From a virus (taxonomy: Duplodnaviria > Caudoviricetes): a DNA stretch of 64,000 bases. Shown one piece after another: positions 2-61,794 of the stretch; within the stretch, counting starts at the first letter, position 1; every line of letters starts with the position of its first letter. The notes beneath the pieces were generated by a model. It was not told where the DNA came from. It did not search any database and was given only the letters and a program-made list of their open reading frames with translations. The DNA lies in IMG/VR virus record IMGVR_UViG_3300005403_000005, positions 26,308 to 90,307 of that record; one strand, given 5' to 3'. Both the position numbers and the translations under genes were made by a program.

Positions 2-3000
2 GGAATACCAACAAACGGAAATGGAATCATTCCACCCTTTGTAACCAATGTCACGCTTTTTGAAGAATATGAACTTGTAGGCGACGTTTATAAGTCAGCA
101 CTTAGTGTAAGTTTTGAGCGCGTATCCCTCCCCAGCGAATCGGACGCATACATCAGGAACTACGAAATAATCTACAGTAATGATGAGGGCGAAACGTGGT
201 TATCTGCTGGGTTTGTATCCGGAATTGGCAATGGTCGCTTCCCAGTGGAAATTGGGGAAGCGTATGCGGTTTGCGTGAAGCCATATACCAATTATGGGAA
301 AACAAACGATATTGAGCTATCTGCAAATGCACTTGACCACCAAGCTTTCATATTGGGAAACCAAGCTACCCCACCAGCAGTAACATACATCAATGCCACT
401 GGGAAGACCTTTAGCATCATCATTGAAACCGACGTTCCAATAGACCCTACGCTTGATGCGATTGAGGTATATGCCGCCACAACAAACGACAGGGCTCAGG
501 CGGTAATCGTGGGGAGGAGCAAGTCTGGAAGGATTCAGCACACGGGAGTTGCCCAGAACCAGACTTACTACTATTGGGCGAAAGCCGTCAATACAGCAAA
601 GAAGGAGAGTGAGTGGTATCCGCTTTCTGATACTGCCGGGGTTGCTTGTCAATCCTCCACCGACCCCTCAGATGTTCTTGGGGTATTGTCTGGGGCGATT
701 ACCGACAGCGAGCTCTCCCAGTCTCTTCTCGACACGATAAACAATAATAGTGCCGGAGTACAGAGCGTCGAAGAGCTTCTTCAGAATCAGTGGACGATGA
801 AGATTACTGAGGGTAATCGCGTTACTGGCGTTGGTTCAATCATGTACCCCAAGTGGGATGTTGCTATGGCATACACTGTGGGAACAATGGTTGAGGGGAG
901 TAATGGTTCTATCTATAAGGCACTTCAATCAAGTACCGGAAAGGACCCGCTTTCAAATCCTACATACTGGCAGCTAGTTCCATACGGAGTAAAATCGGAA
1001 TTCACCATCCTATCCGATAAGTTCCAAGTCATGAGACAGGATGGGACAGGAAGTGCCATTACGCCATTCGTAATCGGTCTTGTAAATGGCGTTGATACTG
1101 TTGGCGTCAATGGTCAACTTGTAGTTGATGACTCAATCAGCGCCAGAAGCATCAAAACTGATGAGCTAATAGTAGGCGAAAATGTCACGATGGGGCCGAA
1201 TGCGGTTATAACTTGGGGTCAGGTAGCAGGAGGTCCTGCAACTTATCAACAATCCACCGACCCGATACCATTGCATCCGACATTCAGCCGTGCGTCAACC
1301 GCCTACCTCGCCAATGGTACCAAGATTGACAGCGGCAAGCCCCGGATTGAGCCCGGTAAATTCGGCGGGGCGATTATGGTGGAGGAGGGGACGACGAACC
1401 TGCTCCTGCCGGGGCAATACAACGCTTCTGATACCACACTATTTTCGGTAGATACTGACTGTGTCTTAAGCCTTGAAACAACAAGCCCGATTAGTGGTGC
1501 GAGTAGCATCAAGTGTGTGACCCCAGCGGTAGCTGTAAAGAGACTTTATTTCAGCATTAATAATAAACCAGCGGTAACAGCAGGACTAGCATATTCAGGA
1601 CAAATGTTGGTTAAAGGCTCAGGGACAGTCACATTTGTAATGAGGGCATATAATAGTTCTAATGTGGCAGTTGGAGATTCCGCATCAATAGACGTTACAT
1701 TAACTGCGACCCCACAATTAATAAAAATTGAGAACTTTATTATTCCTACTGGAGGTGTAAATCTACAGATAATCATTGGTTCGAAAAACGCCGAAGTTTG
1801 CACAATAATTGCCGATTGCTATCAGTTAGAACAAAAACCCTACGCCACCTCGTTTATCGATGGGACACGGGCGGCTGAATCTTTAACTGTGCCGTCAACT
1901 GGTATGTCTCCCGCTGCCGGAACGATAGAAATAGATATTGAAGTCACAGAGCAGACAAAGAGGGTATTGGTCCCAGGCACAAGTCATCTCCTATTCCAAA
2001 TCAGTCGAGCAAACAATGCGAATGCGCAAGGTATTTGCATCGCCCACAATAACAGCGGCTTCGTGTTTGTTACAGCGGATGATTCAAATGCTCAATCTTC
2101 ATCCGCCTATGTAACAAATGCCAATATGCCGAATGGGTGGCGCCGCTTTGCGGTAACGTGGGATGCAACTTCTGCAATATGGTATGTGGATGGAGTTCAG
2201 AAAGGTATAATCGAAGCTCCAAAACTCCCGTCAGCGTTCTCGTCACTCATCCACTTAGGTTGCCACCCTGTAAGCTCATTATCAACAGCTAACTCACTGA
2301 TTGATTGCGTGAGATTGAGTAACTATAAGAGGTCTGCCGCCGAAATACTCGCTTCAGCCACCAGCGGCCTACCAATGGAGCGTGATGCATACACTACGGC
2401 CCTATTCGATTTCAACACTGGCATCGAGTGGCTGAACAACGGCACACTCAAAACCTACAACGGCGTGGCGTGGGAGGATGCTGCTACTTGGGGAGCGCCA
2501 ACTGGGACGTATGTTGGAGCAACATTGGCGGATACCGTCAGCACTGTAGCCACGAACTTCAATACCCGTAATGACCGCAACGCCACCGCCGTTGTCGCCC
2601 CTACCGTCGCCGACGCCACCGGCACCATCGACCACACCGTGAACACGGACGGTTCGGTGGATGTCTCTTTCGAATGGTCGTGGGCTGGCACTGAGGCGGA
2701 TATTGACGGGTTCGTAGTCTACGTCCACGACAATGGCACTACGACCCCAACGAGCCAGAAGGTACTCGCAGCCACGGCGGACGCTTCGGTACAGGTGTTC
2801 TACCTCACCCCCCAACGTCGGGCTTTCATCCTCTACGGTGTCGCGACGAACCATTGGTACACGTTTGGGGTGCAGGCGTACCGGATTGTGGACCAAGATG
2901 TTGACGCCACGGGCACCAAGAAGAGCGCCATTGTCCAGCCCTTGAGCACGGCCACGGAAACGACCTACGGGGCTTATCGCCCTGCTTCGTCGGTGGCCTT

Positions 3001-4891
3001 CGCTGGTGATATTACCGGAACTATCGCAGGAACAGCGGCGAGTACGGTGGTGAGCAATGCAAATAGTGCCTATACGTTAGTCTCAGACATCGCATCTGAC
3101 AGCAAGCTCACCCCAGTCGAAAAACAAGACATCCGCAGGGAGTGGAATGCCATTTACTCGGAGAAATCCTCTCTGGACGCCCAGGCGACAGCACTCGGAA
3201 TCACGACTGAGAAGACGACTTATGACAACTCTATACAGGCGCTCGGCACCTACCTCAACGGTGGTACGGCTTACACCCTCGGTGCAACACCGCCATCTTG
3301 GATAACCGACGCCAACCTGTCAGCCACCACAACAATTGTGGGGGCAACGTTCAGGAGCACGTTCAAGACCTATTACGACGCCAAGATTGCCCTGATAAAC
3401 AAGATGGCGGCGGTGGCGGCTACAAAGGCGGATTGGACTGGGGTAAGTGGTACAGGTAAACCAGCCGACTACGCCACGAAAAACACCGCGTCCAGCGGCA
3501 CAACGCCCCACGCCAACCCGCAGGCCGGAGATACGTGGTTTAACTCTGCCACCACTGACGGCACCTATTACGCGCTGACCAGCTACAGCTACAACGGCAC
3601 TGCTTGGATACCCTCCTCACCGCGTGGGACGTACATCACGAATAATGGGGTGTATACCGGCCTGATTGTGGCCGACCAAGTACAGACCGGCGGGTTGCGT
3701 GGCATCAACGTCAACGCCGCCAGCCATACAACGAAGGGAAGCTATCTTACTCAGGCCTGCGCTGCTGGAGCGACCACGCTGTATGTGCATAATACTGAGG
3801 ATTTCCCGACGAGCGGTGAAGGCTGGTTATTAGGCACAGCGTCGTCCATCATATCCTGGACCGGGAAAACTGCAACAAGTTTGACTGGGGTTTCAGTCCC
3901 TCCTTCATCTGGGGCGATCCCGGCCCAAACTGCTGGCACTACCATTGTTCCGAACGAAAAAGTCATAGTTATAGATGATGCATCCAATGAGATTATTTTT
4001 CTGGGGAACAATGGCACTGTCAATACGTTGTTATGCTCAATCGGGATAGCTTCGGTCGATACAGACTCATATATAATTAATCTGCCAAATTGCGGTGATC
4101 ATTTTGGAATAAATCTCAGAGGAACCAATAAACTTATAAATGCAGTCGAGCAGTCTAGTGCCTATTACAACGATTTGATTTATGCCAAGACGATCAATCA
4201 GTATAGTGTTTCGTTCCACGGGATAGCTGTTGGTGCTGATGGCACTGGGGTGGTTGGAAGAGCGGAAGGAGCCCGTGGAGCTGGGGTTTACGGATATGCT
4301 CCTGGGGCTGGTAAGTTTGGCGTCTATGGTAAATGTGAGACTGCGACCACAGGGTACGATTTTTACGCAGGCGGAGCTGGGGTAAACTATGGACCGTTTA
4401 CTGGATCACACGACGGGCTGGTTCTCAAGGGCTTTTGCGCTCAACCAGGTGATATATTGGTTGATGTAGCAGTAGTTGAAAGAGCCAATGTCTCAAACGC
4501 TATCTGCCAAAACGATTTATCAACCGTGCCACAGCAGCAATGCGTTGTAGGTGTTTATTTGACCCATGGGCCCATGGACACAAAAAATCCGCCATCCGCG
4601 CTATGGGATAAAGTTATTGGGTTACCAAACCCAATAATATTAACGCTATGCGAAATCTACGACCTGGCTGTGTTTAATGCTGTTGGAGAAGGGTTGATTA
4701 ATGTCTGCAAAGATGGCGGAGATATTCAGGCAGGAGATTATATTTGTTCATCAAGTAGGCCAGGAAAAGGAATGAGACAAGATGATGACTTACTGCATAA
4801 CTATACGGTAGCAAAAGCAAGAGAAGATTGCATATGGGCGGAAGGCGAAGATGATATAAGGATGATTGCCTGCACATATCACTGCGGATAG
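2..4891 (+). CDS. Tail fibre / host-specificity protein, 5'-truncated; FN3-like, CBM-like, LamG-like and C-terminal chaperone-like segments
   Basis: Frame is open from base 2 (GIPTNG...) into the 245 ORF. Contains WDVAMAYTVG..IYKAL..YWQL (CBM5/12-like), PTFSRASTAY...VEEGTTNLL fibre motif, VTWD..SAIWYVDG...IDCVRLS (LamG-like) and FTGSH...GEGLINV...GDYI C-terminus; lies just before lysis genes. Confidence 0.8.
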   Translation, partial: GIPTNGNGIIPPFVTNVTLFEEYELVGDVYKSALSVSFERVSLPSESDAYIRNYEIIYSNDEGETWLSAGFVSGIGNGRFPVEIGEAYAVCVKPYTNYGKTNDIELSANALDHQAFILGNQATPPAVTYINATGKTFSIIIETDVPIDPTLDAIEVYAATTNDRAQAVIVGRSKSGRIQHTGVAQNQTYYYWAKAVNTAKKESEWYPLSDTAGVACQSSTDPSDVLGVLSGAITDSELSQSLLDTINNNSAGVQSVEELLQNQWTMKITEGNRVTGVGSIMYPKWDVAMAYTVGTMVEGSNGSIYKALQSSTGKDPLSNPTYWQLVPYGVKSEFTILSDKFQVMRQDGTGSAITPFVIGLVNGVDTVGVNGQLVVDDSISARSIKTDELIVGENVTMGPNAVITWGQVAGGPATYQQSTDPIPLHPTFSRASTAYLANGTKIDSGKPRIEPGKFGGAIMVEEGTTNLLLPGQYNASDTTLFSVDTDCVLSLETTSPISGASSIKCVTPAVAVKRLYFSINNKPAVTAGLAYSGQMLVKGSGTVTFVMRAYNSSNVAVGDSASIDVTLTATPQLIKIENFIIPTGGVNLQIIIGSKNAEVCTIIADCYQLEQKPYATSFIDGTRAAESLTVPSTGMSPAAGTIEIDIEVTEQTKRVLVPGTSHLLFQISRANNANAQGICIAHNNSGFVFVTADDSNAQSSSAYVTNANMPNGWRRFAVTWDATSAIWYVDGVQKGIIEAPKLPSAFSSLIHLGCHPVSSLSTANSLIDCVRLSNYKRSAAEILASATSGLPMERDAYTTALFDFNTGIEWLNNGTLKTYNGVAWEDAATWGAPTGTYVGATLADTVSTVATNFNTRNDRNATAVVAPTVADATGTIDHTVNTDGSVDVSFEWSWAGTEADIDGFVVYVHDNGTTTPTSQKVLAATADASVQVFYLTPQRRAFILYGVATNHWYTFGVQAYRIVDQDVDATGTKKSAIVQPLSTATETTYGAYRPASSVAFAGDITGTIAGTAASTVVSNANSAYTLVSDIASDSKLTPVEKQDIRREWNAIYSEKSSLDAQATALGITTEKTTYDNSIQALGTYLNGGTAYTLGATPPSWITDANLSATTTIVGATFRSTFKTYYDAKIALINKMAAVAATKADWTGVSGTGKPADYATKNTASSGTTPHANPQAGDTWFNSATTDGTYYALTSYSYNGTAWIPSSPRGTYITNNGVYTGLIVADQVQTGGLRGINVNAASHTTKGSYLTQACAAGATTLYVHNTEDFPTSGEGWLLGTASSIISWTGKTATSLTGVSVPPSSGAIPAQTAGTTIVPNEKVIVIDDASNEIIFLGNNGTVNTLLCSIGIASVDTDSYIINLPNCGDHFGINLRGTNKLINAVEQSSAYYNDLIYAKTINQYSVSFHGIAVGADGTGVVGRAEGARGAGVYGYAPGAGKFGVYGKCETATTGYDFYAGGAGVNYGPFTGSHDGLVLKGFCAQPGDILVDVAVVERANVSNAICQNDLSTVPQQQCVVGVYLTHGPMDTKNPPSALWDKVIGLPNPIILTLCEIYDLAVFNAVGEGLINVCKDGGDIQAGDYICSSSRPGKGMRQDDDLLHNYTVAKAREDCIWAEGEDDIRMIACTYHCG

Positions 4892-4901
4892 AGAGGATAC
4901 G

Positions 4902-5081
4902 ATGACAGAAAAAGACCTGAGCAGAGAAATCATGTTGGCTGATACCGTGGCCGAACGAGGCAGACAGGTGCTGCAACAGAGCCAGCAAATCGCCCAACTG
5001 GAGCATGAGGTTGAAAGACTTCGCGAAATCATCAAAACTATGGAGGACAGAAATGCACGTTGTAATGAAGTACCTCAGTAA
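4902..5081 (+). CDS. Small coiled-coil hypothetical protein
   Basis: GAGG RBS before ATG 4902; follows fibre stop. Confidence 0.5.
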   Translation: MTEKDLSREIMLADTVAERGRQVLQQSQQIAQLEHEVERLREIIKTMEDRNARCNEVPQ

Positions 5082-5301
5082 TGTGTGGCGTGCGCTCTGG
5101 GCAATCATCGTCGATATCGATAAGCTTCTCAATGCAATCGCTCTTGGCGACCCAGACGAGACAATCTCCTCCCGTGTAGGGAAACGAAGAGATGGCGCAG
5201 AGCGCTTCTGGGCGTGGGTGGTTGACAAGCTCTTCTTCTGGCAAAAGAACCACACGAAGAAATCAGTACAGCCCGATGAGGGTGGGGATTCAGTAGCATA
5301 A
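5053..5301 (+). CDS. Conserved phage protein (LNAI..GDPDETISSR motif)
   Basis: GGAGG RBS before ATG 5053; motif familiar from phage tail/lysis regions. Confidence 0.55.
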   Translation: MHVVMKYLSNVWRALWAIIVDIDKLLNAIALGDPDETISSRVGKRRDGAERFWAWVVDKLFFWQKNHTKKSVQPDEGGDSVA

Positions 5302-5520
5302 GATGTGACGATAGGGCGCTAGAGATAGCGCCCTTTTCATTTCTGGGAGGAACGATGGAGACACAGATTGTCCAAATCGAGCCGACAATACACCTTTGGG
5401 CTTTTCTATTTTGGATGGGGTTTGTTTTGTCGATAAAGGTTGGCTTCAATATTGTCGCACAGATGCGCCGCTGCGACAAGCTGAATGCCCAAATCGCAGA
5501 GAGGGATTCGGGGGGTGATA

Positions 5521-5787
5521 ATGCTCGACGTTTTGATGGACGATATAGGTCGCAAATTCGTCGATAACGCCGGGAAAATCTTCAGCTTCATTTTCGGCAT
5601 TGTCGGCTGGCTCGCTGGGAAGCTCCTCAAGAAGTTCGAGGAATCGATAAGTGCCGTAAACGAGAAATGCGATGAAAATCATGACGAGATGTACGCCAGA
5701 ACTGAAGCGCTTGAGAAAGAAATCTCGGCGCTCACAAGCAGGCTTGCAAAGCTTGAAGGCGCACATGAGGTCAATCACAAGGGGTAA
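5521..5787 (+). CDS. Small membrane/coiled-coil protein, possibly holin-associated
   Basis: One hydrophobic segment (IFSFIFGIVGWL) then coiled coil; directly upstream of endolysin. Confidence 0.45.
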   Translation: MLDVLMDDIGRKFVDNAGKIFSFIFGIVGWLAGKLLKKFEESISAVNEKCDENHDEMYARTEALEKEISALTSRLAKLEGAHEVNHKG

Positions 5788-7525: not shown

Positions 7526-8658
7526 ATGAATATCGAGGTCAAAGAGAAGAGAGGCATTAAGCGCTGGTACTATGACTTCACGCTTGAGCGGAAACGCCAC
7601 CGTGATTTCCTCGACCCAGTAGAGAGCATGTCAAGAAGGCAGGCTGTGGCGGCAGTCGAAAGGATTCGCGCCGCCATCATCTCCAAGGGGAGCGAGTACA
7701 AGAGAGAGAAGCGCATCGACATCAAGGAGATATTCGACAGCTACAAGACATATCTTGAGGAGCACCGAAAGAGTACGTTCAAGAATTTTATGTATGTCTT
7801 CCACTCCTTCCGCGTATTCCATGATGGCGACATCACAATGGATGACATAGTAGAATAACAGAAGAAGCGCTCATCAGAGGAGGCTTCCGGAGCAACCATC
7901 AATCGGGAGATTGGGATAGCCAAAGCAGCATTCAATCGTGCTATTAAAATGGCATCTGGAAGCGCCAGAATCCCTTCCAGCTTGCCGATAAGTATGAAGC
8001 CGTAGAGAGGGAGCGCTATCTTTCCGAAGAGGAGCTTGTCAATCTCCTCGCAGCATGCAGGCTTGCCGCCAATCAGTACAATCCGCATATCTACGAGATA
8101 GTCATTCTGGGAATCATGACTGGACTGCGGAAAGAGAAAATCCTGACGATGCACGCGAGGAACTTCGGGGATGACCTTCAGACATATACCGTGAAGAAGA
8201 CCGGAACAAACAAATACAAAAAGAGCAATGTCGTCATCATTCCCCAGATGGCCTCCTCCATCATCAAGGATGCGGTGAAGCGAAGCAAGAGCGGCTACCT
8301 CTTCGAGAATCCCAGAACTGGGAAGCCGTACGGGAATATCAAGAGGACATGGGCAACTGCGCTGAAGTTTGCCAAGATTGAAGACTTCCGCTTTCACGAC
8401 CTGAGACATACATTCGGGACATACGCTCTTCTGGCAACGAGAGATTTGAAGGGCGTGCAGGAAGCGATGAACCACTCGACCATCGGACAGACATCCAAAT
8501 ACGCACACATCCTTAATGAGAGAAAAGCTGAAGTTATGGCCCTAACAAATAGTCTCATTTCGAGAATGGTCGTCAGGAATGTCGCAAAGATTGATTCGGT
8601 AGTTTCAAAGAATAGCTCTGGGAAAGGGCTCAGGACTAACCGAGGCATTCCCTCCTAA
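7526..8658 (+). pseudogene. int: Tyrosine integrase, disrupted
   Basis: In-frame TAA at 7856-7858 (DDIVE*QKKR...ATINREIGIAKAAFNRAIK); frameshift in A-run 7946-7949 (continues NGIWKRQNPF...ERERYLSEEE); intact TGLR, FHDLRHTF, HS...T..Y motifs downstream. Confidence 0.85.
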
Positions 8659-16385: not shown

Positions 16386-16907
16386 ATGCGCAGTAATGTG
16401 AATGTGGTGGAGCGAGAGGTTCTCAATGGGATGGTAGCTCCGGAGCTCAGGGTGAAGGAGGCGAGGATTCTTGCATCGCAGGAAGTTTCTACACAGAAAG
16501 TTGTCTATATTAATAGGGAGTCGGAGAAGGTTGAGTCAACAATGACTTCTGCACCCATGATTCCGATGCGTGATGAAGTCCGTATCGTCGAGCGTGAGGA
16601 GCCTATCCCAGCAGATGCGAAGAAGAAGTTCAAGCTCATCCAGCCTTCCAAGTGGAATAGGGCAGCGTGGTTGAGGGGCGTGAAGCGTGGCGATATCATC
16701 GCTATCCGGAGCTGGTCGCTGGGGCCGCTCGAAAGCGTAATTGTTGTGTCATACTGCACTCCCACGATGGTTGTGTCGATTTGTGGTAAGAAGTTCGACA
16801 AAAATGATGGCATCTCCAATGATGGCAAGCGTCTGATGCTCTATCCGCTGAATGATAAGTCGAGGTATCTCCTTGTCAGAAAAGTGAGGAAGGCTCATGG
16901 ACTGTAA
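16386..16907 (+). CDS. Hypothetical protein
   Basis: GGAGAG RBS; operon continuity. Confidence 0.55.
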   Translation: MRSNVNVVEREVLNGMVAPELRVKEARILASQEVSTQKVVYINRESEKVESTMTSAPMIPMRDEVRIVEREEPIPADAKKKFKLIQPSKWNRAAWLRGVKRGDIIAIRSWSLGPLESVIVVSYCTPTMVVSICGKKFDKNDGISNDGKRLMLYPLNDKSRYLLVRKVRKAHGL

Positions 16908-17166: not shown

Positions 17167-18122
17167 GTGTCGATATGGATGCCTTCCGTGACTACCTTGA
17201 GGAATTCTTTTCGGTAGTCGAAGTTTCCGGCTCTACGCAATGGAAGCTTGAGGGTGGGGAATGTCCCTTCTGCGGCGAGAGCAGGACTGACCTTCGCCTC
17301 TATGTGAATTCCTCGACCGGGGTTGGCGTTTGCCATCACTGTAGCAAGGGATTCACTGCCGTTTCATTCATCATGGCAAATGAGGGCTGCTCCCACAAGA
17401 AGGCTGTCGGCATCCTTAATGGCCATGAGGATGGTTGGGCGACGGAGAGGCCGGAGGAAAAGGTTGTAGAGTCTGGTCTGATTTCTCCCAAATGTGTTTC
17501 GGCGCTTGACTCCCGCCAAGCACTCGACTATCTGATGAGTCGTGGCATTGGTGAGGTCGAAATCAAACACTTCCGCCTCCTTTGGGCAACAGAAAATGTT
17601 GTGATAAATGGCAAGACATACTGGACTGCAAAGCGGATAGTCATCCCCATCTTCGACTCCTCTTGTGTGATGGTTTCGTGGCAGGCTAGGGATACGACTG
17701 GGACATCTAGCCAGAAGTATCTCTTCCCGCCCGGATTCAAGGGGAGAGAGTATGTCTACAATATCTGCGGAATCCCAGATGACCCGGATTACTTGATAGT
17801 CTCCGAGGGTGTATTCGATGTTTTCGGCTGGTGGCGAAGTGGCTTCCGTAATGTCGTGGCTACATTCGGCAAGAAGATGACCGAAGAGCAGGCGCTCTTG
17901 ATACGCTCCAAGCGTCCGAAGATTCTTCTAGTTGCATGGGATACGGATGCGACGTGGAATAAGTATGAATTGGTTGAGAAGATAGGCTGCCACTTCCAAG
18001 ACGTAAGGATAATAGATTTGAAGGGGAGGGATGCTGACGAATTAAGGCGGGATGCCCTTCTTGAATCATTCAAGCAGGCATCCCGCTATAGTTGGGAAGA
18101 TAAGATTCTCTCGGCACTGTGA
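17151..18122 (+). CDS. DNA primase (Zn finger + TOPRIM)
   Basis: CPFC...CHHC; IVSEGVFD; AWDTD; DADE. Confidence 0.9.
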   Translation: MEIVVSVDMDAFRDYLEEFFSVVEVSGSTQWKLEGGECPFCGESRTDLRLYVNSSTGVGVCHHCSKGFTAVSFIMANEGCSHKKAVGILNGHEDGWATERPEEKVVESGLISPKCVSALDSRQALDYLMSRGIGEVEIKHFRLLWATENVVINGKTYWTAKRIVIPIFDSSCVMVSWQARDTTGTSSQKYLFPPGFKGREYVYNICGIPDDPDYLIVSEGVFDVFGWWRSGFRNVVATFGKKMTEEQALLIRSKRPKILLVAWDTDATWNKYELVEKIGCHFQDVRIIDLKGRDADELRRDALLESFKQASRYSWEDKILSAL

Positions 18123-18597
18123 TTATGCGTCGAGCGATAGTCTAATCTTGTCATAGATTTCACTTATCTCCTCATCTGGTGATTTTAGCGCATCCTTGAA
18201 CACTCTGGGTATTTCAGTCGCAAGAGAAAGAAACGCATCAAATGCGTCTTTGTGCATGACTCTGAGTATCACCAAGGCAAAATCTTTGCTAAAGCCATAC
18301 ACACTGACAAAATCAGATACGCGGTTGATGGGAATCTTGGACTTGCCAGCCTCAATCATAGAGATGAAGTTGAGGTTTGCATATCCAAGTCTCTTAGTGA
18401 CATCCCTTGACTAAAGCCGATTGCTTTTCTTTGTGTAAAAAGCAGTCTTCCAAGTTCCACAACTGTAATGTAATGGTTTCGATGTTTGTACCTTTGAGGC
18501 TTTTGATGCTCATAATATTTTCTCCGATTTTTGCATTAATGTCGTTAGTAATTGTGGCATTCGGAAGCCGCGCATTTCTTTGAGCAACTGCTTCCAT
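18123..18597 (-). pseudogene. XRE/Cro-CI-family HTH repressor, doubly frameshifted
   Basis: Removing a 5-nt duplication (18464-18475) and restoring 1 nt near 18407 gives ...ETITVVELGRLLFTQRKAIGFSQRDVTKRLGYANLNFISMIEAGKSKIP..., a typical XRE HTH; AGGAGG RBS before ATG 18597; AT-rich and divergent from the VWA gene. Confidence 0.75.
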
Positions 18598-18810
18598 GTT
18601 GAATTACCTCCTATTGGTTTAATTATCTGCTTAATGTAACCTTATACCAATTGTTTTTCCAATGTCAATAAACTTTTGTACCCGTGAATAAAAAAAAGTG
18701 CCTCATTGTAATGAGGCAATCTGCTTACAAATCTAAGGGTTTAATATTAATTGACTTTTGATGACATTTCAAGTATCTTATTAATAGAAATGATGAAGAA
18801 AGGAGGGTTT

Positions 18811-20772
18811 ATGAGCAATAAAGGGATGGGTGTGCTTGAAAAGGTCAGTCGAGCTATTGCGGCTGATTACGGAATTACAGTCACTTTTAGTGGCACGGCA
18901 GCTTATACGGATTGTCGTCACATCAATCTTCCGATGGTTCCTGATGAGATGTTGAATGAGGAATCCATCGACATGCTTCGCGGATACTGCGACCACGAGA
19001 TTGCGCACGTTCTGTTTAGCGATGCAAACATCATAAAGGAGCCGTGGTTCAATGCGCTTCCCGATGATGTGGTTCTTCTCACTGGGATTTTTGAGGATAT
19101 TCGCGTCGAGCACCTGATGTCAAACAAGTATGAAGGTTCTCGCGTGAACATGAATCGACTCACGGACATTCTTGCGAAGAAGACTGATAAGGAGCATCCC
19201 TTCGGCGCACTTCTACTTGAGGGTCGGAGGCAGTGTAACGGATATATCCTCGAAGACGTAGATGATTATGCAGGGAAGTTGAAGACTTTCTTCAATGAGC
19301 CAAGGCTGTTTGAGCGTATCTCGGCGCTCAAGAGTAGTCATGAGTCATGCGACCTTGCGCAGGAGCTTCTGAAGAAGCAGCAACAGCAGCAACAGCAGCA
19401 ACAGCAGCAACAGCAGCAACAGCAGCAACAGCAGCAACAGCAGCAAGGGGAGAAGCCTGAGAAGCCTGAGAAGCCTGAGAAGCCTGAGAAGCCTGAGAAG
19501 CCTGAGAAGCCTGAGAAGCCTGAGAAGCCTGAGAAGCCTGAGAATGACGAGGATGGGGAAGATGAGGGTGATAGCAGCGACGGAAAGGAGAAGGGGGATA
19601 AGGGCAAAAAGTGTGGCTCGGGCGATGGGAAGGATGGGGGCGAGGATGATGGGGCATCAGATAATGATGGGGCATCAGATAATGCTGGCTCTCCCAGTGA
19701 GAAATCATCAGTCACGGATGAGAATGGTGGTGAGTGTGGCGGAAATGTCAATGCTACGGGGAAATCGGTAGATATTGGCGATTGGTACGCAAAGGATTCG
19801 GGCGATTTTGATGACCCCATGAAGGCTGCTATGGATGAGTTTCTTGAGCAGAATAGTTCCACCATTTCTGGTCGCGACACTTACATTCCCTTCTCCAAGA
19901 ACTTCGACAAATTCGAGACAATTGAGGAAGCATCTGATACCACACAATATGGACGCCTCCTTGAGCGACTGGGGAATTTTTCCGGCGTAAAGCAGAAGAT
20001 AGCCACGATGTTCGCAACAAGGGTTGCAGGACACTGGATTCTCGGAAAAGACCAGGGACGCATCAATAATAGGGCTCTTGCTGGCGTGATTGCTGGGAGG
20101 AAGGATGTCTTCAAGGAGCGCTACGTCTGCAATGATGTCGATACTGCGATTACGTTCCTCATCGACCTCTCTGGTTCGATGTCTGGTGGCTACAAGATAG
20201 AGACTGCTATGGCTACAGCAGCAATGTTCTGCGAGATTCTCAATGCCACGCGCGTCAAGTTTGAGATTCTCGGTTTTACGTCTACTACGCCAACGATTGC
20301 AAGTAGGGCAGCATTGGAAAAATCATACAAACATGGCGGGAAGGAAGCAGGCTACTTTAATCGTTATGAACCCCTCTATACGTGCGTGTTCAAGGCATTC
20401 GAGGAGCCGATGGGAGCTAAGATTAAGAGAAGGCTGTCTAGCTGGAATAAAATCCAAAAGCGCAACAATTACGATGGCGAGAGTTTAATGATTGCCTTCA
20501 ATAGAATCATCCGGCGCAAAGAGTCGCGCAAAATCATCTTCGTCCTCTCCGATGGCGCTCCCTGCGGCGATTCCTGCGCTCGCAGGAGTGACGGGGGCGC
20601 TTATCTCAAGAAGGTCTGCGAATCAATCGAGGCTACTCCGGTGGAGCTGATTGGCATCGGCTTCATGTCACGCGTGGTAAGGAAATTCTACAAGAACCAT
20701 ATCCTAGTCGATAATGCGCGGGAGCTTCCGGAAAAGATGTTGAAGGAGTTGAAGCGGATACTCCATGTCTAA
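18811..20772 (+). CDS. VWA-domain protein (CobT-like) with N-terminal HExxH segment and low-complexity linker
   Basis: DHEIAH; FLIDLSGSM MIDAS; FVLSDGAP. Confidence 0.85.
   Translation: MSNKGMGVLEKVSRAIAADYGITVTFSGTAAYTDCRHINLPMVPDEMLNEESIDMLRGYCDHEIAHVLFSDANIIKEPWFNALPDDVVLLTGIFEDIRVEHLMSNKYEGSRVNMNRLTDILAKKTDKEHPFGALLLEGRRQCNGYILEDVDDYAGKLKTFFNEPRLFERISALKSSHESCDLAQELLKKQQQQQQQQQQQQQQQQQQQQQQQGEKPEKPEKPEKPEKPEKPEKPEKPEKPEKPENDEDGEDEGDSSDGKEKGDKGKKCGSGDGKDGGEDDGASDNDGASDNAGSPSEKSSVTDENGGECGGNVNATGKSVDIGDWYAKDSGDFDDPMKAAMDEFLEQNSSTISGRDTYIPFSKNFDKFETIEEASDTTQYGRLLERLGNFSGVKQKIATMFATRVAGHWILGKDQGRINNRALAGVIAGRKDVFKERYVCNDVDTAITFLIDLSGSMSGGYKIETAMATAAMFCEILNATRVKFEILGFTSTTPTIASRAALEKSYKHGGKEAGYFNRYEPLYTCVFKAFEEPMGAKIKRRLSSWNKIQKRNNYDGESLMIAFNRIIRRKESRKIIFVLSDGAPCGDSCARRSDGGAYLKKVCESIEATPVELIGIGFMSRVVRKFYKNHILVDNARELPEKMLKELKRILHV
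19378..19539 (+). repeat. In-frame 9-nt microsatellites: CAG-CAG-CAA array (23 Gln) then GAGAAGCCT x10 (EKP)
   Basis: Read directly from sequence; an 18-nt duplication (DGASDN x2) also occurs at 19648-19683. Confidence 0.95.
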
Positions 20773-52340: not shown

Positions 52341-52604
52341 ATGAAATGGAAGTTTTGGAAGAAGGAAGAGGCTCCCAAGAGGGAGCTGAGGAGACTTGAG
52401 ATTCCTGCCGAGAGAGTTCGTGAAATCCGGAGACTCAGTGATGAATATTATGGTCTTCCCGCAAGACAGGATAAGGAGGCTCACTACATTCTCTGGACTG
52501 CTGTGGCGGAAATCTTCCCCGAGGTTAGGGAGGGGAGATGGCGACTTGAATTCCCGAATGCCTTTCGTGCCGAAGTGGTTGAGTGGGCGAGGGATGGGGA
52601 ATGA
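52341..52604 (+). CDS. Hypothetical protein
   Basis: GAGGAG RBS. Confidence 0.55.
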   Translation: MKWKFWKKEEAPKRELRRLEIPAERVREIRRLSDEYYGLPARQDKEAHYILWTAVAEIFPEVREGRWRLEFPNAFRAEVVEWARDGE

Positions 52605-53002
52605 TTGCGATAGTGAATGTTTCCCAAGAGCCGAAGCCTACGGGCGAGCAGGATTACGAGGTAAGAATCAATCGTCAAGTCATCACGCGGTTTAAGCACA
52701 ATCGGGAGGATGGCTTGGAGAAATGTCTTCGCTTGGCGGCTGATGCTGTTGTGCGATATAAGCGGGAAGAAGCTGCTAAGATAGTGAACTACCCGGAGGA
52801 ACCGATGGAACTATCAGAGAGACAGGAACGAATCATGAGGGCCGCACGTCGAGGCTACGAAGCATATTGTGGATACACTGGCTGCAAAAGCGCCGTAACA
52901 GGCGATCCGCTGCCTATCTGGGAGAGCCTACCGGGAGCCGTCAAAAATGCGTGGTTTGCCGCAGCAGCCGGTATTTTCCAGGAAATGCGGGGCGAACCGT
53001 GA
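52601..53002 (+). CDS. Hypothetical protein
   Basis: ATGA coupling. Confidence 0.5.
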   Translation: MIAIVNVSQEPKPTGEQDYEVRINRQVITRFKHNREDGLEKCLRLAADAVVRYKREEAAKIVNYPEEPMELSERQERIMRAARRGYEAYCGYTGCKSAVTGDPLPIWESLPGAVKNAWFAAAAGIFQEMRGEP

Positions 53003-53284
53003 GTGAATACCCTTGGGACATTGAAAACATGATGCTGGCACAGCACGACCAGCCCTGCGACTGCGCTATCTGCGATGAGATACATAGAGCAAGGGAGGCC
53101 AGGAAAAGCCGTGGAGCAAAATGCTTCCTGAACAACGACGGGACAAGCGATTGCGACCGGCTGAGAGCGGCTTTGCAGAAGATTGCGCGGGGGACTCTTG
53201 AGCCGGGGCATGTCTATCAGCAGGCAGTCATGATGCAGGACATAGCCCGCGAAGCCCTGGCCGACAGGCCATAAGCCAAGATGA

Positions 53285-53334
53285 TTATAACGGCTTGAGT
53301 TGAGCCGCACAACGGCTCGAACGTTTGGTTATGC
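53285..53334 (-). mobile_element. Integron attC site
   Basis: Minus strand: GCATAAC-CAAAC-GTTCGAGC...GCTCAAC-TCAAGCC-GTTATAA; extra C in L''. Confidence 0.8.
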
Positions 53335-53358
53335 GTTCGGGCTATAGAGGGGGGTACC

Positions 53359-53628
53359 GTGGATTTACTAAGGATGGACCATATAAACAGCCTGCCGCAG
53401 CCTTTCATTGCCCATTTCTATGGCGGTGACGAATGGCCTGTAAATGACATTGAAGCTGAAACAGGAATGATGCGAATTGGCGTAGTGGGCAAACTCCAAG
53501 TCACACACATTAGGGATGTTCGTTTTTTCCGCGATGCTGACGGCGTTGAGCACGATGCGGAAAGTTTCTACAGTGACTATGGATTGCTCGACGCTATGGA
53601 TGCTGTAGCGCAGGTAATCGAGCCATAG
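53359..53628 (+). CDS. Hypothetical protein inside attC-bounded cassette
   Basis: Lies between attC sites at 53285 and 53637. Confidence 0.55.
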   Translation: MDLLRMDHINSLPQPFIAHFYGGDEWPVNDIEAETGMMRIGVVGKLQVTHIRDVRFFRDADGVEHDAESFYSDYGLLDAMDAVAQVIEP

Positions 53629-53636
53629 GCAAGTAT

Positions 53637-53696
53637 CATAACTCGTTGAATTAAACTGCAAGCGTAGCGCAGACGGCTTTGAAAGTCTGGTTGTTG
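53637..53696 (-). mobile_element. Degenerate attC site
   Basis: Minus strand: CAACAAC...TTTCAAAG...CTGC-GCTACGCTT-GCAG-TTTAAT...GTTATGA. Confidence 0.55.
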
Positions 53697-53714
53697 CTCG
53701 GAAGGAGCTACGAA

Positions 53715-53903
53715 GTGCCAATCTACGTATATCAATGTGAGTGTGGCAATGAGGTCGAGGAGTTTCGGAAGTTCAGCAATGCGGATTCCCCAGTCGAGTG
53801 CGGGAAGTGTGGCAAGGGGATGAAGCGTGGGGTGGCCCTTACATCCGGCATCATCCTCAAGGGGAGTGGGTGGGCTAGAGATGGCTACTCATCGGAGTCA
53901 TAA
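53715..53903 (+). CDS. FmdB-family Zn-ribbon protein
   Basis: PIYVYQCECG..EE...CGKC...LKGSGW..DGY; AAGGAG RBS before GTG. Confidence 0.8.
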   Translation: MPIYVYQCECGNEVEEFRKFSNADSPVECGKCGKGMKRGVALTSGIILKGSGWARDGYSSES

Positions 53904-53906
53904 CCA

Positions 53907-54110
53907 ATGATAAAACCATGTCCATTTTGCGGAAATGAAAAAGAATTTGGCATTGGCAGGGGTACAAAAGACCGTGAGGGTTGGCCTACGTATATTTACT
54001 GCCCATCATGTGGGGCGCAAGGGCCATGGGTTTACACTACCGACAAGGCTGTTTTTGTCTGTACCGAGATTGCGGCAGAAAAGACGGGATGGAACAAGAG
54101 GAGCGAATGA
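53907..54110 (+). CDS. Lar-family restriction-alleviation-like Zn finger
   Basis: KPCPFCG...CPSCGAQGP...WNKR. Confidence 0.65.
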   Translation: MIKPCPFCGNEKEFGIGRGTKDREGWPTYIYCPSCGAQGPWVYTTDKAVFVCTEIAAEKTGWNKRSE

Positions 54111-58615: not shown

Positions 58616-58644
58616 GTGACAGTGAAGTAACTACTTGATAGAAT
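58616..58644 (+). promoter_or_regulatory. Sigma70-type promoter with conserved spacer motif
   Basis: GTGACA-GTGAAGTAACTACTTGA-TAGAAT. Confidence 0.7.
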
Positions 58645-59998: not shown

Positions 59999-60221
59999 TG
60001 GGCGTTTCTATGCGGGACTGTAAATCAGTCCCGCATATCCAAAATGGAGGTGATGGCATGGGTATAGCAAGCGTATTTTTTTTTGTTGTTGGCATCTTAT
60101 GGATGCTTAATGCGATATTATGCGTGAGGGTGAAAAGAAATTTGTCAGCTTTTGTATTTGCCATCATAAGCATAATAAACTTTCTCGTCGTGGCGGTCAT
60201 TTATAATAGTGGAGTTCTAAG

Positions 60222-60365: not shown

Positions 60366-60428
60366 TTATAACGGTTAGCCGATGACCCGCGCAGCGAAGC
60401 GGAGTCGGCGTCTATAGGCGGGTTATAT
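60366..60428 (-). mobile_element. Integron attC site
   Basis: Minus strand: ATATAAC-CCGC-CTATAGAC...GTCATCG...GTTATAA. Confidence 0.7.
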
Positions 60429-60446
60429 CACGAAAGGACTGTTGAT

Positions 60447-60755
60447 ATGGAATGGATAAGCGTCAACGACCGTCTACCTGAGATACCAGAGGGCCGATAC
60501 GGAGTGCAGATATTGATAGCCGAGTTCGACTCTATTTATGAGGAATGCAATCCCGGTCAAGGTTATAGAGTCAGTCAAGCCAGCTATCATTTCATCTCTG
60601 ACGCTGAGCGTAAAACTTGGGGTTGGTCAGAAGCAGTAAAAGCGGATTTCATGCAACTTTACAGCGGGCCAACTGGTAGCGAGTGGGGGCCATGCGCGGA
60701 TGTTGTCACACATTGGATGCCTCTTCCGGCACCACCGACGACAAAACCAGAGTGA
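60447..60755 (+). CDS. DUF551-like protein (cassette ORF)
   Basis: MEWISVNDRLPE...VTHWMPLPAPP. Confidence 0.75.
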   Translation: MEWISVNDRLPEIPEGRYGVQILIAEFDSIYEECNPGQGYRVSQASYHFISDAERKTWGWSEAVKADFMQLYSGPTGSEWGPCADVVTHWMPLPAPPTTKPE

Positions 60756-60813
60756 TATAACGGCCAGCCGATGACCGGACGGCTTTATGTTCCGGTCGAT
60801 AGGCGGGTTATCC
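60755..60813 (-). mobile_element. Integron attC site
   Basis: Minus strand: GGATAAC-CCGC-CTATCGAC-CGGAAC...GTCCG-GTCATCG...GTTATAT; two unpaired bases (C, A). Confidence 0.85.
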
Positions 60814-60846
60814 CTTTTGGGTGGCCCGCAGGGAGGAATTGAGATT

Positions 60847-61137
60847 ATGAGCAACACTCTGACCTGTGTTTACTGTGGTATGGCCTATCCCGAGGGGACA
60901 CCTCCGCACGGCTCGCAAGTTCTAACCGACCATATCAAAGTCTGCGAAAAGCACCCACTCCGCGCTGCCGAAACAACGATTGCAAAACTCCGCTCCGCCC
61001 TGGTCGGGTTGGTGGGGGTTGACGGCAAAGAGGAGTTGGAACAAATGGAGGCAATGATACGGATGTCTGGCGATGCGTCGACCAAAGATAAGGCAGTCGC
61101 AATTGACGCAATCCACGCCCTACTGGATACGTTGTAG
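60847..61137 (+). CDS. Hypothetical protein (cassette ORF)
   Basis: CVYCG...HI..C..HP; bounded by attC sites. Confidence 0.6.
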   Translation: MSNTLTCVYCGMAYPEGTPPHGSQVLTDHIKVCEKHPLRAAETTIAKLRSALVGLVGVDGKEELEQMEAMIRMSGDASTKDKAVAIDAIHALLDTL

Positions 61138-61189
61138 GGATAACGGTTACTAAGGTGAGCGGCTTGACCGCTCCGGCGAATTGTTATCT
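61138..61189 (-). mobile_element. Integron attC site
   Basis: Minus strand: AGATAAC-AATTC-GCCGGAGCGG...CCGCTCACC...GTTATCC. Confidence 0.7.
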
Positions 61190-61384
61190 TCGGAGGCAAT
61201 TTTGAAAGAGGGAAATCGATTAACCTGTGATTGCTGCGCTCGGCAAATTATCCACGGCAGCGGAAAAGGTGATAAATGGGTGACATTCGGGCCGGTCACT
61301 CTGTTGGGAATAAATCAGCATTGTTGTTCGGAATGTTCTATTGATCTGGATGAAAACGGGCTGTTTCCAGAAGAAAGAAGATAA
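61181..61384 (+). CDS. Cys-rich hypothetical protein (cassette ORF)
   Basis: CDCC...CCSEC; stop TAA lies within the next attC R box. Confidence 0.5.
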   Translation: MLSSEAILKEGNRLTCDCCARQIIHGSGKGDKWVTFGPVTLLGINQHCCSECSIDLDENGLFPEERR

Positions 61385-61431
61385 CGGCCATGCGTTTGAC
61401 CTGCTCCGGCAGGTCGTAACGCTGGTTATAC
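61379..61431 (-). mobile_element. Integron attC site
   Basis: Minus strand: GTATAAC-CAGC-GTTACGAC-CTGC...GCAG-GTCAAAC...GTTATCT; extra C in L''. Confidence 0.85.
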
Positions 61432-61441
61432 GGGAGGTACA

Positions 61442-61645
61442 GTGAGCAAAGAAGAGTACATCAATCAATTATCAAGTCTTCAGCAACAGTTAAACAATCA
61501 CCTGATGGGTGCATACCAGCACGATCTTAAATACAAGCTGGAAATCAATGAGGCCCGTTCAGCCTCAAAGGATGATGACCGGCAAGTCATTGGCATAACC
61601 GTAACCAGTGCCAAGCCGGTTTATAAAAGTGACGGGGTGCCGTGA
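61442..61645 (+). CDS. Hypothetical protein
   Basis: GGAGGT RBS right after attC. Confidence 0.5.
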   Translation: MSKEEYINQLSSLQQQLNNHLMGAYQHDLKYKLEINEARSASKDDDRQVIGITVTSAKPVYKSDGVP

Positions 61646-61794
61646 TGATAGCCATAGTTAACATAACTCAGCCCTGTGAACCCGAAAGCGACGATACTGC
61701 TCCGGACGAAGACTGGATGCTTCCCGAATGACTACATTGCCGGGGATGCCATCATTGTGACGAATCAAGAACTAAATGGGAATGAGGATTAACA

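Follow-up and report, generated by a model that had tools for sequence, protein, structure and literature searches.

Positions 60366 to 61431 of the phage DNA analyzed here hold four imperfect palindromes that alternate with small open reading frames (ORFs). The locus raises the question of whether an integron cassette array is present inside a phage genome and, if so, which integrase recombines its cassettes and how its genes are transcribed. The DNA comes from a 90,307-bp IMG/VR record (IMGVR_UViG_3300005403_000005) of an uncultivated groundwater phage with direct terminal repeats and 50.5% G+C. The window, to which all coordinates refer unless a contig is named, is the 64-kb (64,000-nucleotide) right-hand part of this record. 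A search of the phage collection found no close relative of the window phage among deposited phages, and exact-protein look-ups with ORF A, ORF D, the ORF of the S0 cassette, and a 55-aa flank gene mostly returned the window phage itself.

Integrons are gene-capture devices of bacteria. The reading that best explains the locus is an integron cassette array that lacks an integrase, whose ORFs are inverted and transcribed by the phage, that is recombined in trans, and that has partly decayed; on the sequence comparisons described below, we regard this reading as very probable. The first-pass annotation had proposed an integron-type array with its top strand on the minus strand, with ORFs antisense to the attC sites, and with no intI gene, and this proposal is supported overall.

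The four palindromes listed in that annotation are present, measure 50 to 63 nucleotides, and with their 7-mers occupy exactly the span 60366-61431. Their common pattern, ATAAC-N(35-65)-GTTAT, occurs five times in the window, compared with 0.73 expected occurrences, and five were reached in 0 of 100 shuffles. Copies at 60368-60426, 60757-60811, 61140-61187, and 61381-61429 correspond to sites S1 (60366-60428), S2 (60755-60813), S3 (61138-61189), and S4 (61379-61431). The fifth copy, at 53287-53332, was absent from the earlier list and corresponds to site S0 (53285-53334). All five sites read nnATAAC ... GTTATnn with invariant AAC and GTT, and they follow in part the purine/pyrimidine pattern of the RYYYAAC ... 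GTTRRRY consensus, which in integron attC sites delimits imperfect palindromes of about 55-140 nucleotides. In S1, the R'' box is ATATAAC and the R' box is GTTATAA. The palindromes are asymmetric, because ATAACGG is found in the window at the five sites only, and on the plus strand every time. Sites near-identical to S2 are present in three other contigs (L006, L009, and L011).

An extra L'' base had been claimed for the minus strand of these sites. In alignments, the base is clear in four of the five, but it is degenerate in S3, which is short and has a degenerate L box. With the extra base in brackets, the L''/L' boxes on the minus strand are GTT[C]GAGC/GCTCAAC in S0 and TAT[C]GAC/GTCAT in S2; S1 has TAT[A]GAC, and S4 has two unpaired bases versus one.

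The 7-mer pairs noted across neighboring sites (GTTATCT/AGATAAC, GTTATCC/GGATAAC, and GTTATAT/ATATAAC) are right, and they widen to perfect inverted repeats of 9 to 10 bp around each enclosed ORF (GTTATATCAC, GTTATCCCT, and GTTATCTTC). Each R' box in the window array is therefore complementary to the R'' box of the next site, as in integron arrays. Eight arrays of this family provide 30 pairs of consecutive sites; their perfect repeats have a median of 9 bp, and 27 of the pairs reach at least 8 bp, whereas the median is 5 bp among 1414 non-consecutive control pairs, 5.7% of which reach 8 bp. These numbers uphold the interpretation of the offset as a footprint of cassette ends. However, the strand assignment cannot be taken from it, because the offset is identical on both strands.

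The sites have no match in Rfam. They were searched with two home-built covariance models, whose E-values are rough. The first (R1) was built from 14 sites of the family and, in the whole genome, finds just S0 to S4 (45.6, 50.0, 68.5, 46.3, and 48.8 bits, respectively); it tells the strands apart, with S4, for example, scoring 48.8 bits on the plus strand versus 16 bits on the other. The second (R2) was built from the top strands of 12 attC sites of five annotated class 1 integrons on plasmids (aadB, catB8, aadA1, dfrA12, aadA2, blaIMP-1, aacA4, aac(6')-Ib-cr, blaOXA-1, catB3, arr-3, and dfrA27). It models the R box and the L box including the bulge, and was run with filters off on both strands of 90.6 kb (181 kb).

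The best genome-wide matches to R2 are S0 (23.4 bits, E about 1e-3), S1 (16.0 bits), S3 (13.1 bits), one spurious match, and S2 (10.0 bits); S4 was missed at E<=10. The matches to S0 through S3 have modest scores, but all are full length and all lie on the minus strand. Thus, four of the five best matches to a class 1 attC model are sites of this family, on the strand predicted at the outset. In four contigs of relatives (L103, L105, L009, and L006), 12 of 13 R2 matches are family sites, always on the strand opposite intI. S0 is the closest of the five to class 1 attC sites: its minus strand reads GCATAAC, CAAAC, GTT[C]GAGC ... GCTCAAC, TCAAGCC, GTTATAA, compared with GTCTAAC, AATTC, GTT[C]AAGC ... 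GCTTAAC, TCAAGC, GTTAGAT for the aadA1 attC. Plasmid class 1 sites show the same L'' bulge (GTT[C]AAGC/GCTTAAC). By these sequence features, S0 to S4 are classified as putative attC sites of an integron cassette array.

If the sites are attC, whole cassettes should vary among related genomes. Such variation, which had been named as a check, exists in other metagenomes, as both loss and swap of whole units. A contig from another groundwater metagenome joins 60756 to 61140 and omits 383 nucleotides, the unit of ORF B, and the joint has seven letters common to both sides, ATAACGG. A contig from another metagenome has a different sequence in place of 61145-61380. The 1125-nucleotide contig L128, from another run, has the order end of S2 plus ORF B, foreign cassette, S4 plus ORF D. 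The foreign cassette, which occupies the place of S3 and ORF C, consists of a 113-nucleotide attC and an 81-aa ORF and has the ends GTTATCGC/GCGATAAC. In the c4 cassette of L128, ORF D is followed by a 68-aa ORF, then by the cassette end GTCCGTATAA|C, which matches GTTATACGG of S4, and then by an S1-type site. One contig links the left flank of the window phage itself (up to 60362) to the body of S2.

Contig G002 has an exact tandem duplication of a cassette with a 547-nucleotide period and with CGTTAT at both borders of the identity. The duplicated unit, at 18097-19196 of this contig (L019/L020), is a DUF5662 cassette within a prophage-borne complete integron of at least eight attC sites.

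In run X4, contigs break at site borders; the phage backbone has a depth of 13-18 and single cassettes one of 290-415, which implies further copies of these cassettes elsewhere in the community. The movement variants are metagenome contigs, some with 31-36 nucleotides on one side of the joint, and the variant arrays may sit in genomes other than that of the window phage. The same four cassettes recur in three independent assemblies of the window phage, which are 99-100% identical, so in this lineage the array may be static. As far as natural variants can indicate, the cassettes would move as units bounded by a G|TT crossover.

Four lines of evidence agree in supporting the minus strand of the window as the attC top strand. 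R2 matches lie on the minus strand only here and on the strand opposite intI in relatives; the G002 duplication is bounded by the R' boxes of successive sites; metagenome contigs show the 383-nucleotide loss and the replacement of 61145-61380; and the identity of a shared cassette, X91 (see below), ends exactly at ATAAC|G of S0. A crossover at G|TTAT of the minus strand is likewise supported by the tandem duplication, by the precise loss, by the swap, and by a cassette found in many phage contexts. The ORFs that adjoin an S2-type site are non-homologous between contigs, and co-travel of attC and ORF is therefore of no use for strand assignment.

With the minus strand as top strand, a mobile unit in plus-strand reading would comprise an attC and the ORF that lies to the right of it. 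The predicted cassettes are c1 (60372-60760), c2 (60761-61143, opened by S2), c3 (61144-61384, opened by S3), and c4 (from 61385, opened by S4). We infer that the crossover in S1 lies between 60371 and 60372 (ATAA|C on the plus strand).

The cassettes encode a DUF551 protein and small viral-type proteins, all on the plus strand. ORF A (60447-60755, 102 aa) lies in c1, with a 10-bp inverted repeat (GTTATATCAC/GTGATATAAC) on either side, and its initial description as DUF551-like is borne out by matches to Pfam PF04448 (E 5e-9) and phrog_924 (E 5e-11). ORF B (60847-61137, 96 aa) encodes a small Cys-rich protein that has no family in Pfam or PHROG, and its nearest ESM Atlas clusters are 86-100% viral. 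The product of ORF C (61202-61384, 60 aa) is also Cys-rich; the ORF has a TTG start behind GGAGG, and its TAA stop codon is inside the ATAAC of S4. ORF D (61442-61645, 67 aa), in c4, has a GTG start behind GGGAGG and is called as a 67-aa gene in sister contigs too. Ribosome-binding sites of the GGAGG type occur 12-40 nucleotides past each GTTAT, and stop codons are at or inside ATAAC.

ORFs that have family or ribosome-binding-site support are all opposite to the attC top strand and co-directional with the phage genes, in agreement with the original description. In intI-linked arrays, the same relative strand is found for genes encoding an N6_N4 DNA methylase (E 1e-20), YopX (E 2e-17), DUF5662 (E 4e-43), and an ASCH protein, and the cassette ORFs examined in all arrays are antisense to attC and co-directional with intI and phage genes. 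Promoterless ORFs that share the direction of the attC top strand and are expressed from Pc, as in the classical arrangement, are found neither here nor in the intI-linked arrays. A consensus scan detected no promoter-like or terminator-like site on the plus strand inside the array, and the nearest promoter-like site on this strand is at 58616-58644. Phage promoters, and not an integron Pc, most likely drive expression of the cassette ORFs by read-through.

No intI gene is located in the window, as was first observed, and no integron integrase was found in the whole 90.3-kb genome. The array is therefore a cluster of attC sites lacking integrase (CALIN), and the genome does not have the intI gene and attI site that adjoin the array in a complete integron. 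The only tyrosine recombinase of the genome, at 7526-8658, has an IntI score of 32.7 bits, compared with a cut-off of 265 bits. The recombinase appears to be split into an N-terminal ORF (7526-7858) and a catalytic-domain frame that runs from about 7947, has its first start codon at 8116, and lies in another frame.

Integrases are, however, present beside the same attC family in relatives. A 20-mer common to S1 and S2 led to further viral contigs that carry arrays of the same family with the same end offset. Two matches to this 20-mer were set aside, as that in L007 is inside an apparent coding region and that in L010 is a shortened site only. Integrases that pass the 265-bit cut-off of NCBIfam TIGR02249 are found beside family sites in G002 (352 bits) and in G003 and G004 (290.6 bits). 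The G002 IntI is 43.7% identical to IntI1. L103 contains a complete array and an integrase that is 91% identical to that of G002, with six family sites directly upstream of it. In all four contigs, 0.1-0.7 kb separates intI from the first site, and the gene diverges from the top strand. The intI-bearing contigs are phage, with genes for the terminase large subunit (E 2e-115 and 6e-100), portal (E 4e-113), major head protein, and primase, and a replication initiator gene adjoins intI. G001 is a complete 57-kb phage with terminal repeats that, like the window phage, has family sites without intI. L104 encodes an IntI that is 77% identical to that of G002 and has no family sites within the locus.

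The motif GAATCA[GC]A[AT]G|TTA is found 60-85 nucleotides upstream of three phage intI genes (at about 16566-16590 in G002, 1075-1095 in L008, and 6585-6605 in L009) and is a candidate attI crossover. It is overlapped by the stop codon of the first cassette ORF, and it has no clear counterpart in the window.

In the phage contig L130, seven or more attC sites of the family lie between the genes for SSB and DnaB (2509-5555), so arrays sit inside replication modules. Placement of the window array in an early region, as the first-pass annotation had it, is plausible, since related arrays lie between SSB and DnaB genes or adjoin primase genes.

The annotation further proposed that a host integron integrase shuffles the phage cassettes. 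The shuffling part of this proposal agrees with the whole-unit variation in other metagenomes, but the integrase need not be that of the host. Shuffling by an integrase of a chromosomal integron in the bacterial host, and not by a phage-borne enzyme, is possible, given that the phage has no intI gene and that bacterial IntI1 recombines attC sites of virulent phages (Qi et al. 2023, PMC9892861). We consider this somewhat doubtful, in that all integrases detected next to sites of this family belong to phage or prophage contigs. Also, no bacterial IntI relative above 44% identity was found in 185,579 species genomes by a scan that relies on exact peptide words and can miss relatives; the scan returned distant tyrosine recombinases only, and no family sites beside them. 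Because the same attC family adjoins bona fide IntI genes in phage and prophage contigs, an IntI supplied in trans by a phage is no less likely than a host IntI.

A broader possibility, to which we give roughly even odds, is that a phage-specific integron lineage exists, in which early accessory genes pass from phage to phage through phage-encoded IntI proteins and an attC family of its own, and the window phage carries cassettes but uses an integrase in trans. The cargo of this lineage would include methylases, DUF551, YopX, and small zinc-binding proteins, and possibly counter-defence genes, in cassettes that are 'backwards' to suit phage promoters.

Other recombination processes may also have shaped the arrays, as seen at their ends. 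In a second array, the cassette X91 occupies 52789-53291 on the plus strand, with a 91-aa ORF at 52999-53274 and the end GATTATAA|C. The exact 91-aa protein is found on 21 contigs. Between 52789 and 53292 the window is identical to L130, L134, and L136, and the match breaks off at ATAAC|G of S0. The full cassette, in L130 and L136, has a 17-bp terminal inverted repeat, and the copy in the window is cut at 52789, inside a 133-aa phage ORF. This ORF (52601-53002) is an apparent fusion, in which the N-terminus (MIAIVNVSQEP...) is similar to the 68-aa second c4 ORF in L128 and the 3' portion, beginning at 52789, is identical to the 81-aa ORF of the X91 cassette in other phages.

The next unit, the S0 cassette (53291-53641), has the ends GTTATG/CATAAC and an 89-aa ORF (53359-53628, plus strand) that has no family in Pfam or PHROG. 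A degenerate site-like stretch behind it, at about 53638-53695, was read by eye only, and R1 reports none there. The sequence GATTATAAC, which is present to the left of both S0 and S1, was considered as a preferred target or attI remnant. This interpretation was rejected, because cassettes of a widespread type (L103, L130, L134, and L136) simply end in GATTATAAC.

At the right end of the main array (61645-61792, plus strand), the second ORF of c4 is cut after 13 codons at 61684; that this is a truncation is based on L128, which has the full cassette. At the cut, an 8-bp microhomology, TGAACCCG (61677-61684), links the ORF to the 3' portion of a DUF3846 gene of the backbone (61676-61792). The gene is truncated at its 5' end by the array and is intact (91 aa) in the sister contig L144, which is identical to the window from 61677. 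By its sequence, the right end is a non-IntI junction, which microhomology-mediated recombination would have produced. Because of this fusion and of the cut inside the X91 ORF, the arrays are regarded here as partly decayed, or as partly acquired by other kinds of recombination.

It could be proposed from the same junctions that the array is a frozen relic: a single illegitimate or homologous exchange with an integron-bearing prophage would have brought it into this phage, where it would no longer recombine, and the variation would belong to other elements. The microhomology join that truncates both a cassette ORF and the DUF3846 gene, the truncated X91 cassette, the identical array in three assemblies, and the genome without intI are all consistent with such an origin. 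We nevertheless judge it unlikely, because the contig that joins the phage's own left flank to the S2 body, and the array borders that differ among sister phages, speak against a single frozen event. Moreover, the attC sites and their 9-10 bp end repeats are intact, and they would not be kept without selection for recombination. That the palindromes are not integron sites at all, but phage intergenic stem-loops, such as terminators, RNA processing sites, or promoter/stem-loop modules of the kind known from T4-type phages, or sites of the phage's own non-IntI tyrosine recombinase, is very improbable: although they lie between co-directional genes, would fold in mRNA, and share the genome with the recombinase gene at 7526-8658, no T-run follows the sites and no plus-strand terminator was found by the scan, the predicted DNA folds are only weakly more stable than those of shuffles for most sites, the recombinase scores far below the IntI cut-off and is apparently split in two frames, and the sites show the cassette-end offset, the similarity to class 1 attC sites, the linkage to TIGR02249 integrases, and the unit-precise variation.

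In the preferred reading of an integrase-less, phage-transcribed array, an IntI-type recombinase would fold the bottom strand, which is the plus strand of the window, and cut at AA|C. Each unit on the plus strand would then start with an attC, continue with the ORF to its right, and end in the ATAA of the next site. Each ORF has its own ribosome-binding site just past the R'' end and the direction of the surrounding phage genes, so phage promoters would read through the cassette ORFs and Pc would not be used. The integrase would come in trans, most likely from related phages or prophages that have intI beside the same attC family, or from a host integron. Natural variants show cassettes that are lost, swapped, duplicated, and shared among phages at attC sites, and one array end would have been made by microhomology-mediated recombination, not by IntI.

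Integron arrays in phages are an already known kind of arrangement. Qi, Rajabal, Ghaly, Tetu, and Gillings (Front Microbiol 2023, PMC9892861) described 21 cases among sequenced phages, comprising three complete integrons, one In0, and 17 CALINs. A few temperate phages have complete integrons, the CALIN cargo includes DNA methylases, and cassettes are in the usual direction or have mixed attC directions (PMC9892861). Like those CALINs, the array studied here is a cluster of attC sites without an integrase inside a phage genome. In contrast to them, its sites belong to a single attC family found in many uncultivated phages, all ORFs run antisense to attC, the lineage of integrases is carried by phages, beside primase or terminase genes, and natural loss, swap, and duplication of cassettes are visible.

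The sites share with class 1 attC sites (aadA1, aadB, and aac(6')-Ib) the layout R''-spacer-L''...L'-spacer-R', the AAC/GTT cores, the extra L'' base, and the G|TT crossover. As in class 1 cassettes, the ends are complementary across neighboring sites, and intI is divergent from the attC top strand. However, with the ORFs on the opposite strand, their expression from a Pc near intI would be impossible. Also, the core is GTTAT instead of strict GTTRRRY, the end repeats are 8-17 bp versus about 7 bp, CC precedes R', the central spacers are more uneven, and the R-proximal spacers are more asymmetric. Sedentary chromosomal integrons, such as Vibrio superintegrons, likewise combine a homogeneous attC family with small, unrelated genes whose functions are mostly unknown. 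A minority of their cassettes are reversed and have their own promoters, for example toxin-antitoxin cassettes (PMC11014356). Unlike in Vibrio-type integrons, reversal is the rule in every array examined here, and the arrays are short and located in phage replication or accessory regions.

Repeated intergenic elements that flank small accessory ORFs in plastic phage regions are also a feature of the promoter/stem-loop shuffling of T4-type phages. That shuffling proceeds by homologous recombination between direct repeats and, to our knowledge, involves neither an inverted-end offset nor a dedicated integrase.

A literature search, the coverage of which was incomplete, found no earlier report of uniformly inverted cassette ORFs, of a single attC family in many uncultivated phages whose arrays adjoin primase genes or lie between SSB and DnaB, or of a phage-borne IntI lineage beside such a family. 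Uniformly inverted, phage-transcribed cassettes and a phage-borne integrase lineage therefore appear to be new. The mosaic accessory regions of phages are usually ascribed to homologous or illegitimate recombination, and small early genes are the class with most anti-defence genes. If phages run their own integron system, here with a separate integrase lineage, a common attC family, and cassettes that face the way phage transcription runs, it would provide a site-specific route to rapid turnover of small early genes. The direction of a cassette relative to its attC would then be set by who transcribes the array, and not by recombination chemistry.

Other elements occur near the two arrays. A perfect 12-bp stem with a 5-nucleotide loop (TATGCGGGACTG/CAGTCCCGCATA) is located at 60009-60037, directly after a gene that encodes a 369-aa protein. 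It is not an attC, and no T-run lies behind it. The palindromic sites are absent from three contigs (L003-L005) that encode relatives of this 369-aa protein. Directly after the second array, 53679-54110 encodes a Zn_ribbon_8 protein and a protein with weak similarity to Lar (restriction alleviation); both assignments are precomputed Pfam matches on a sister contig.
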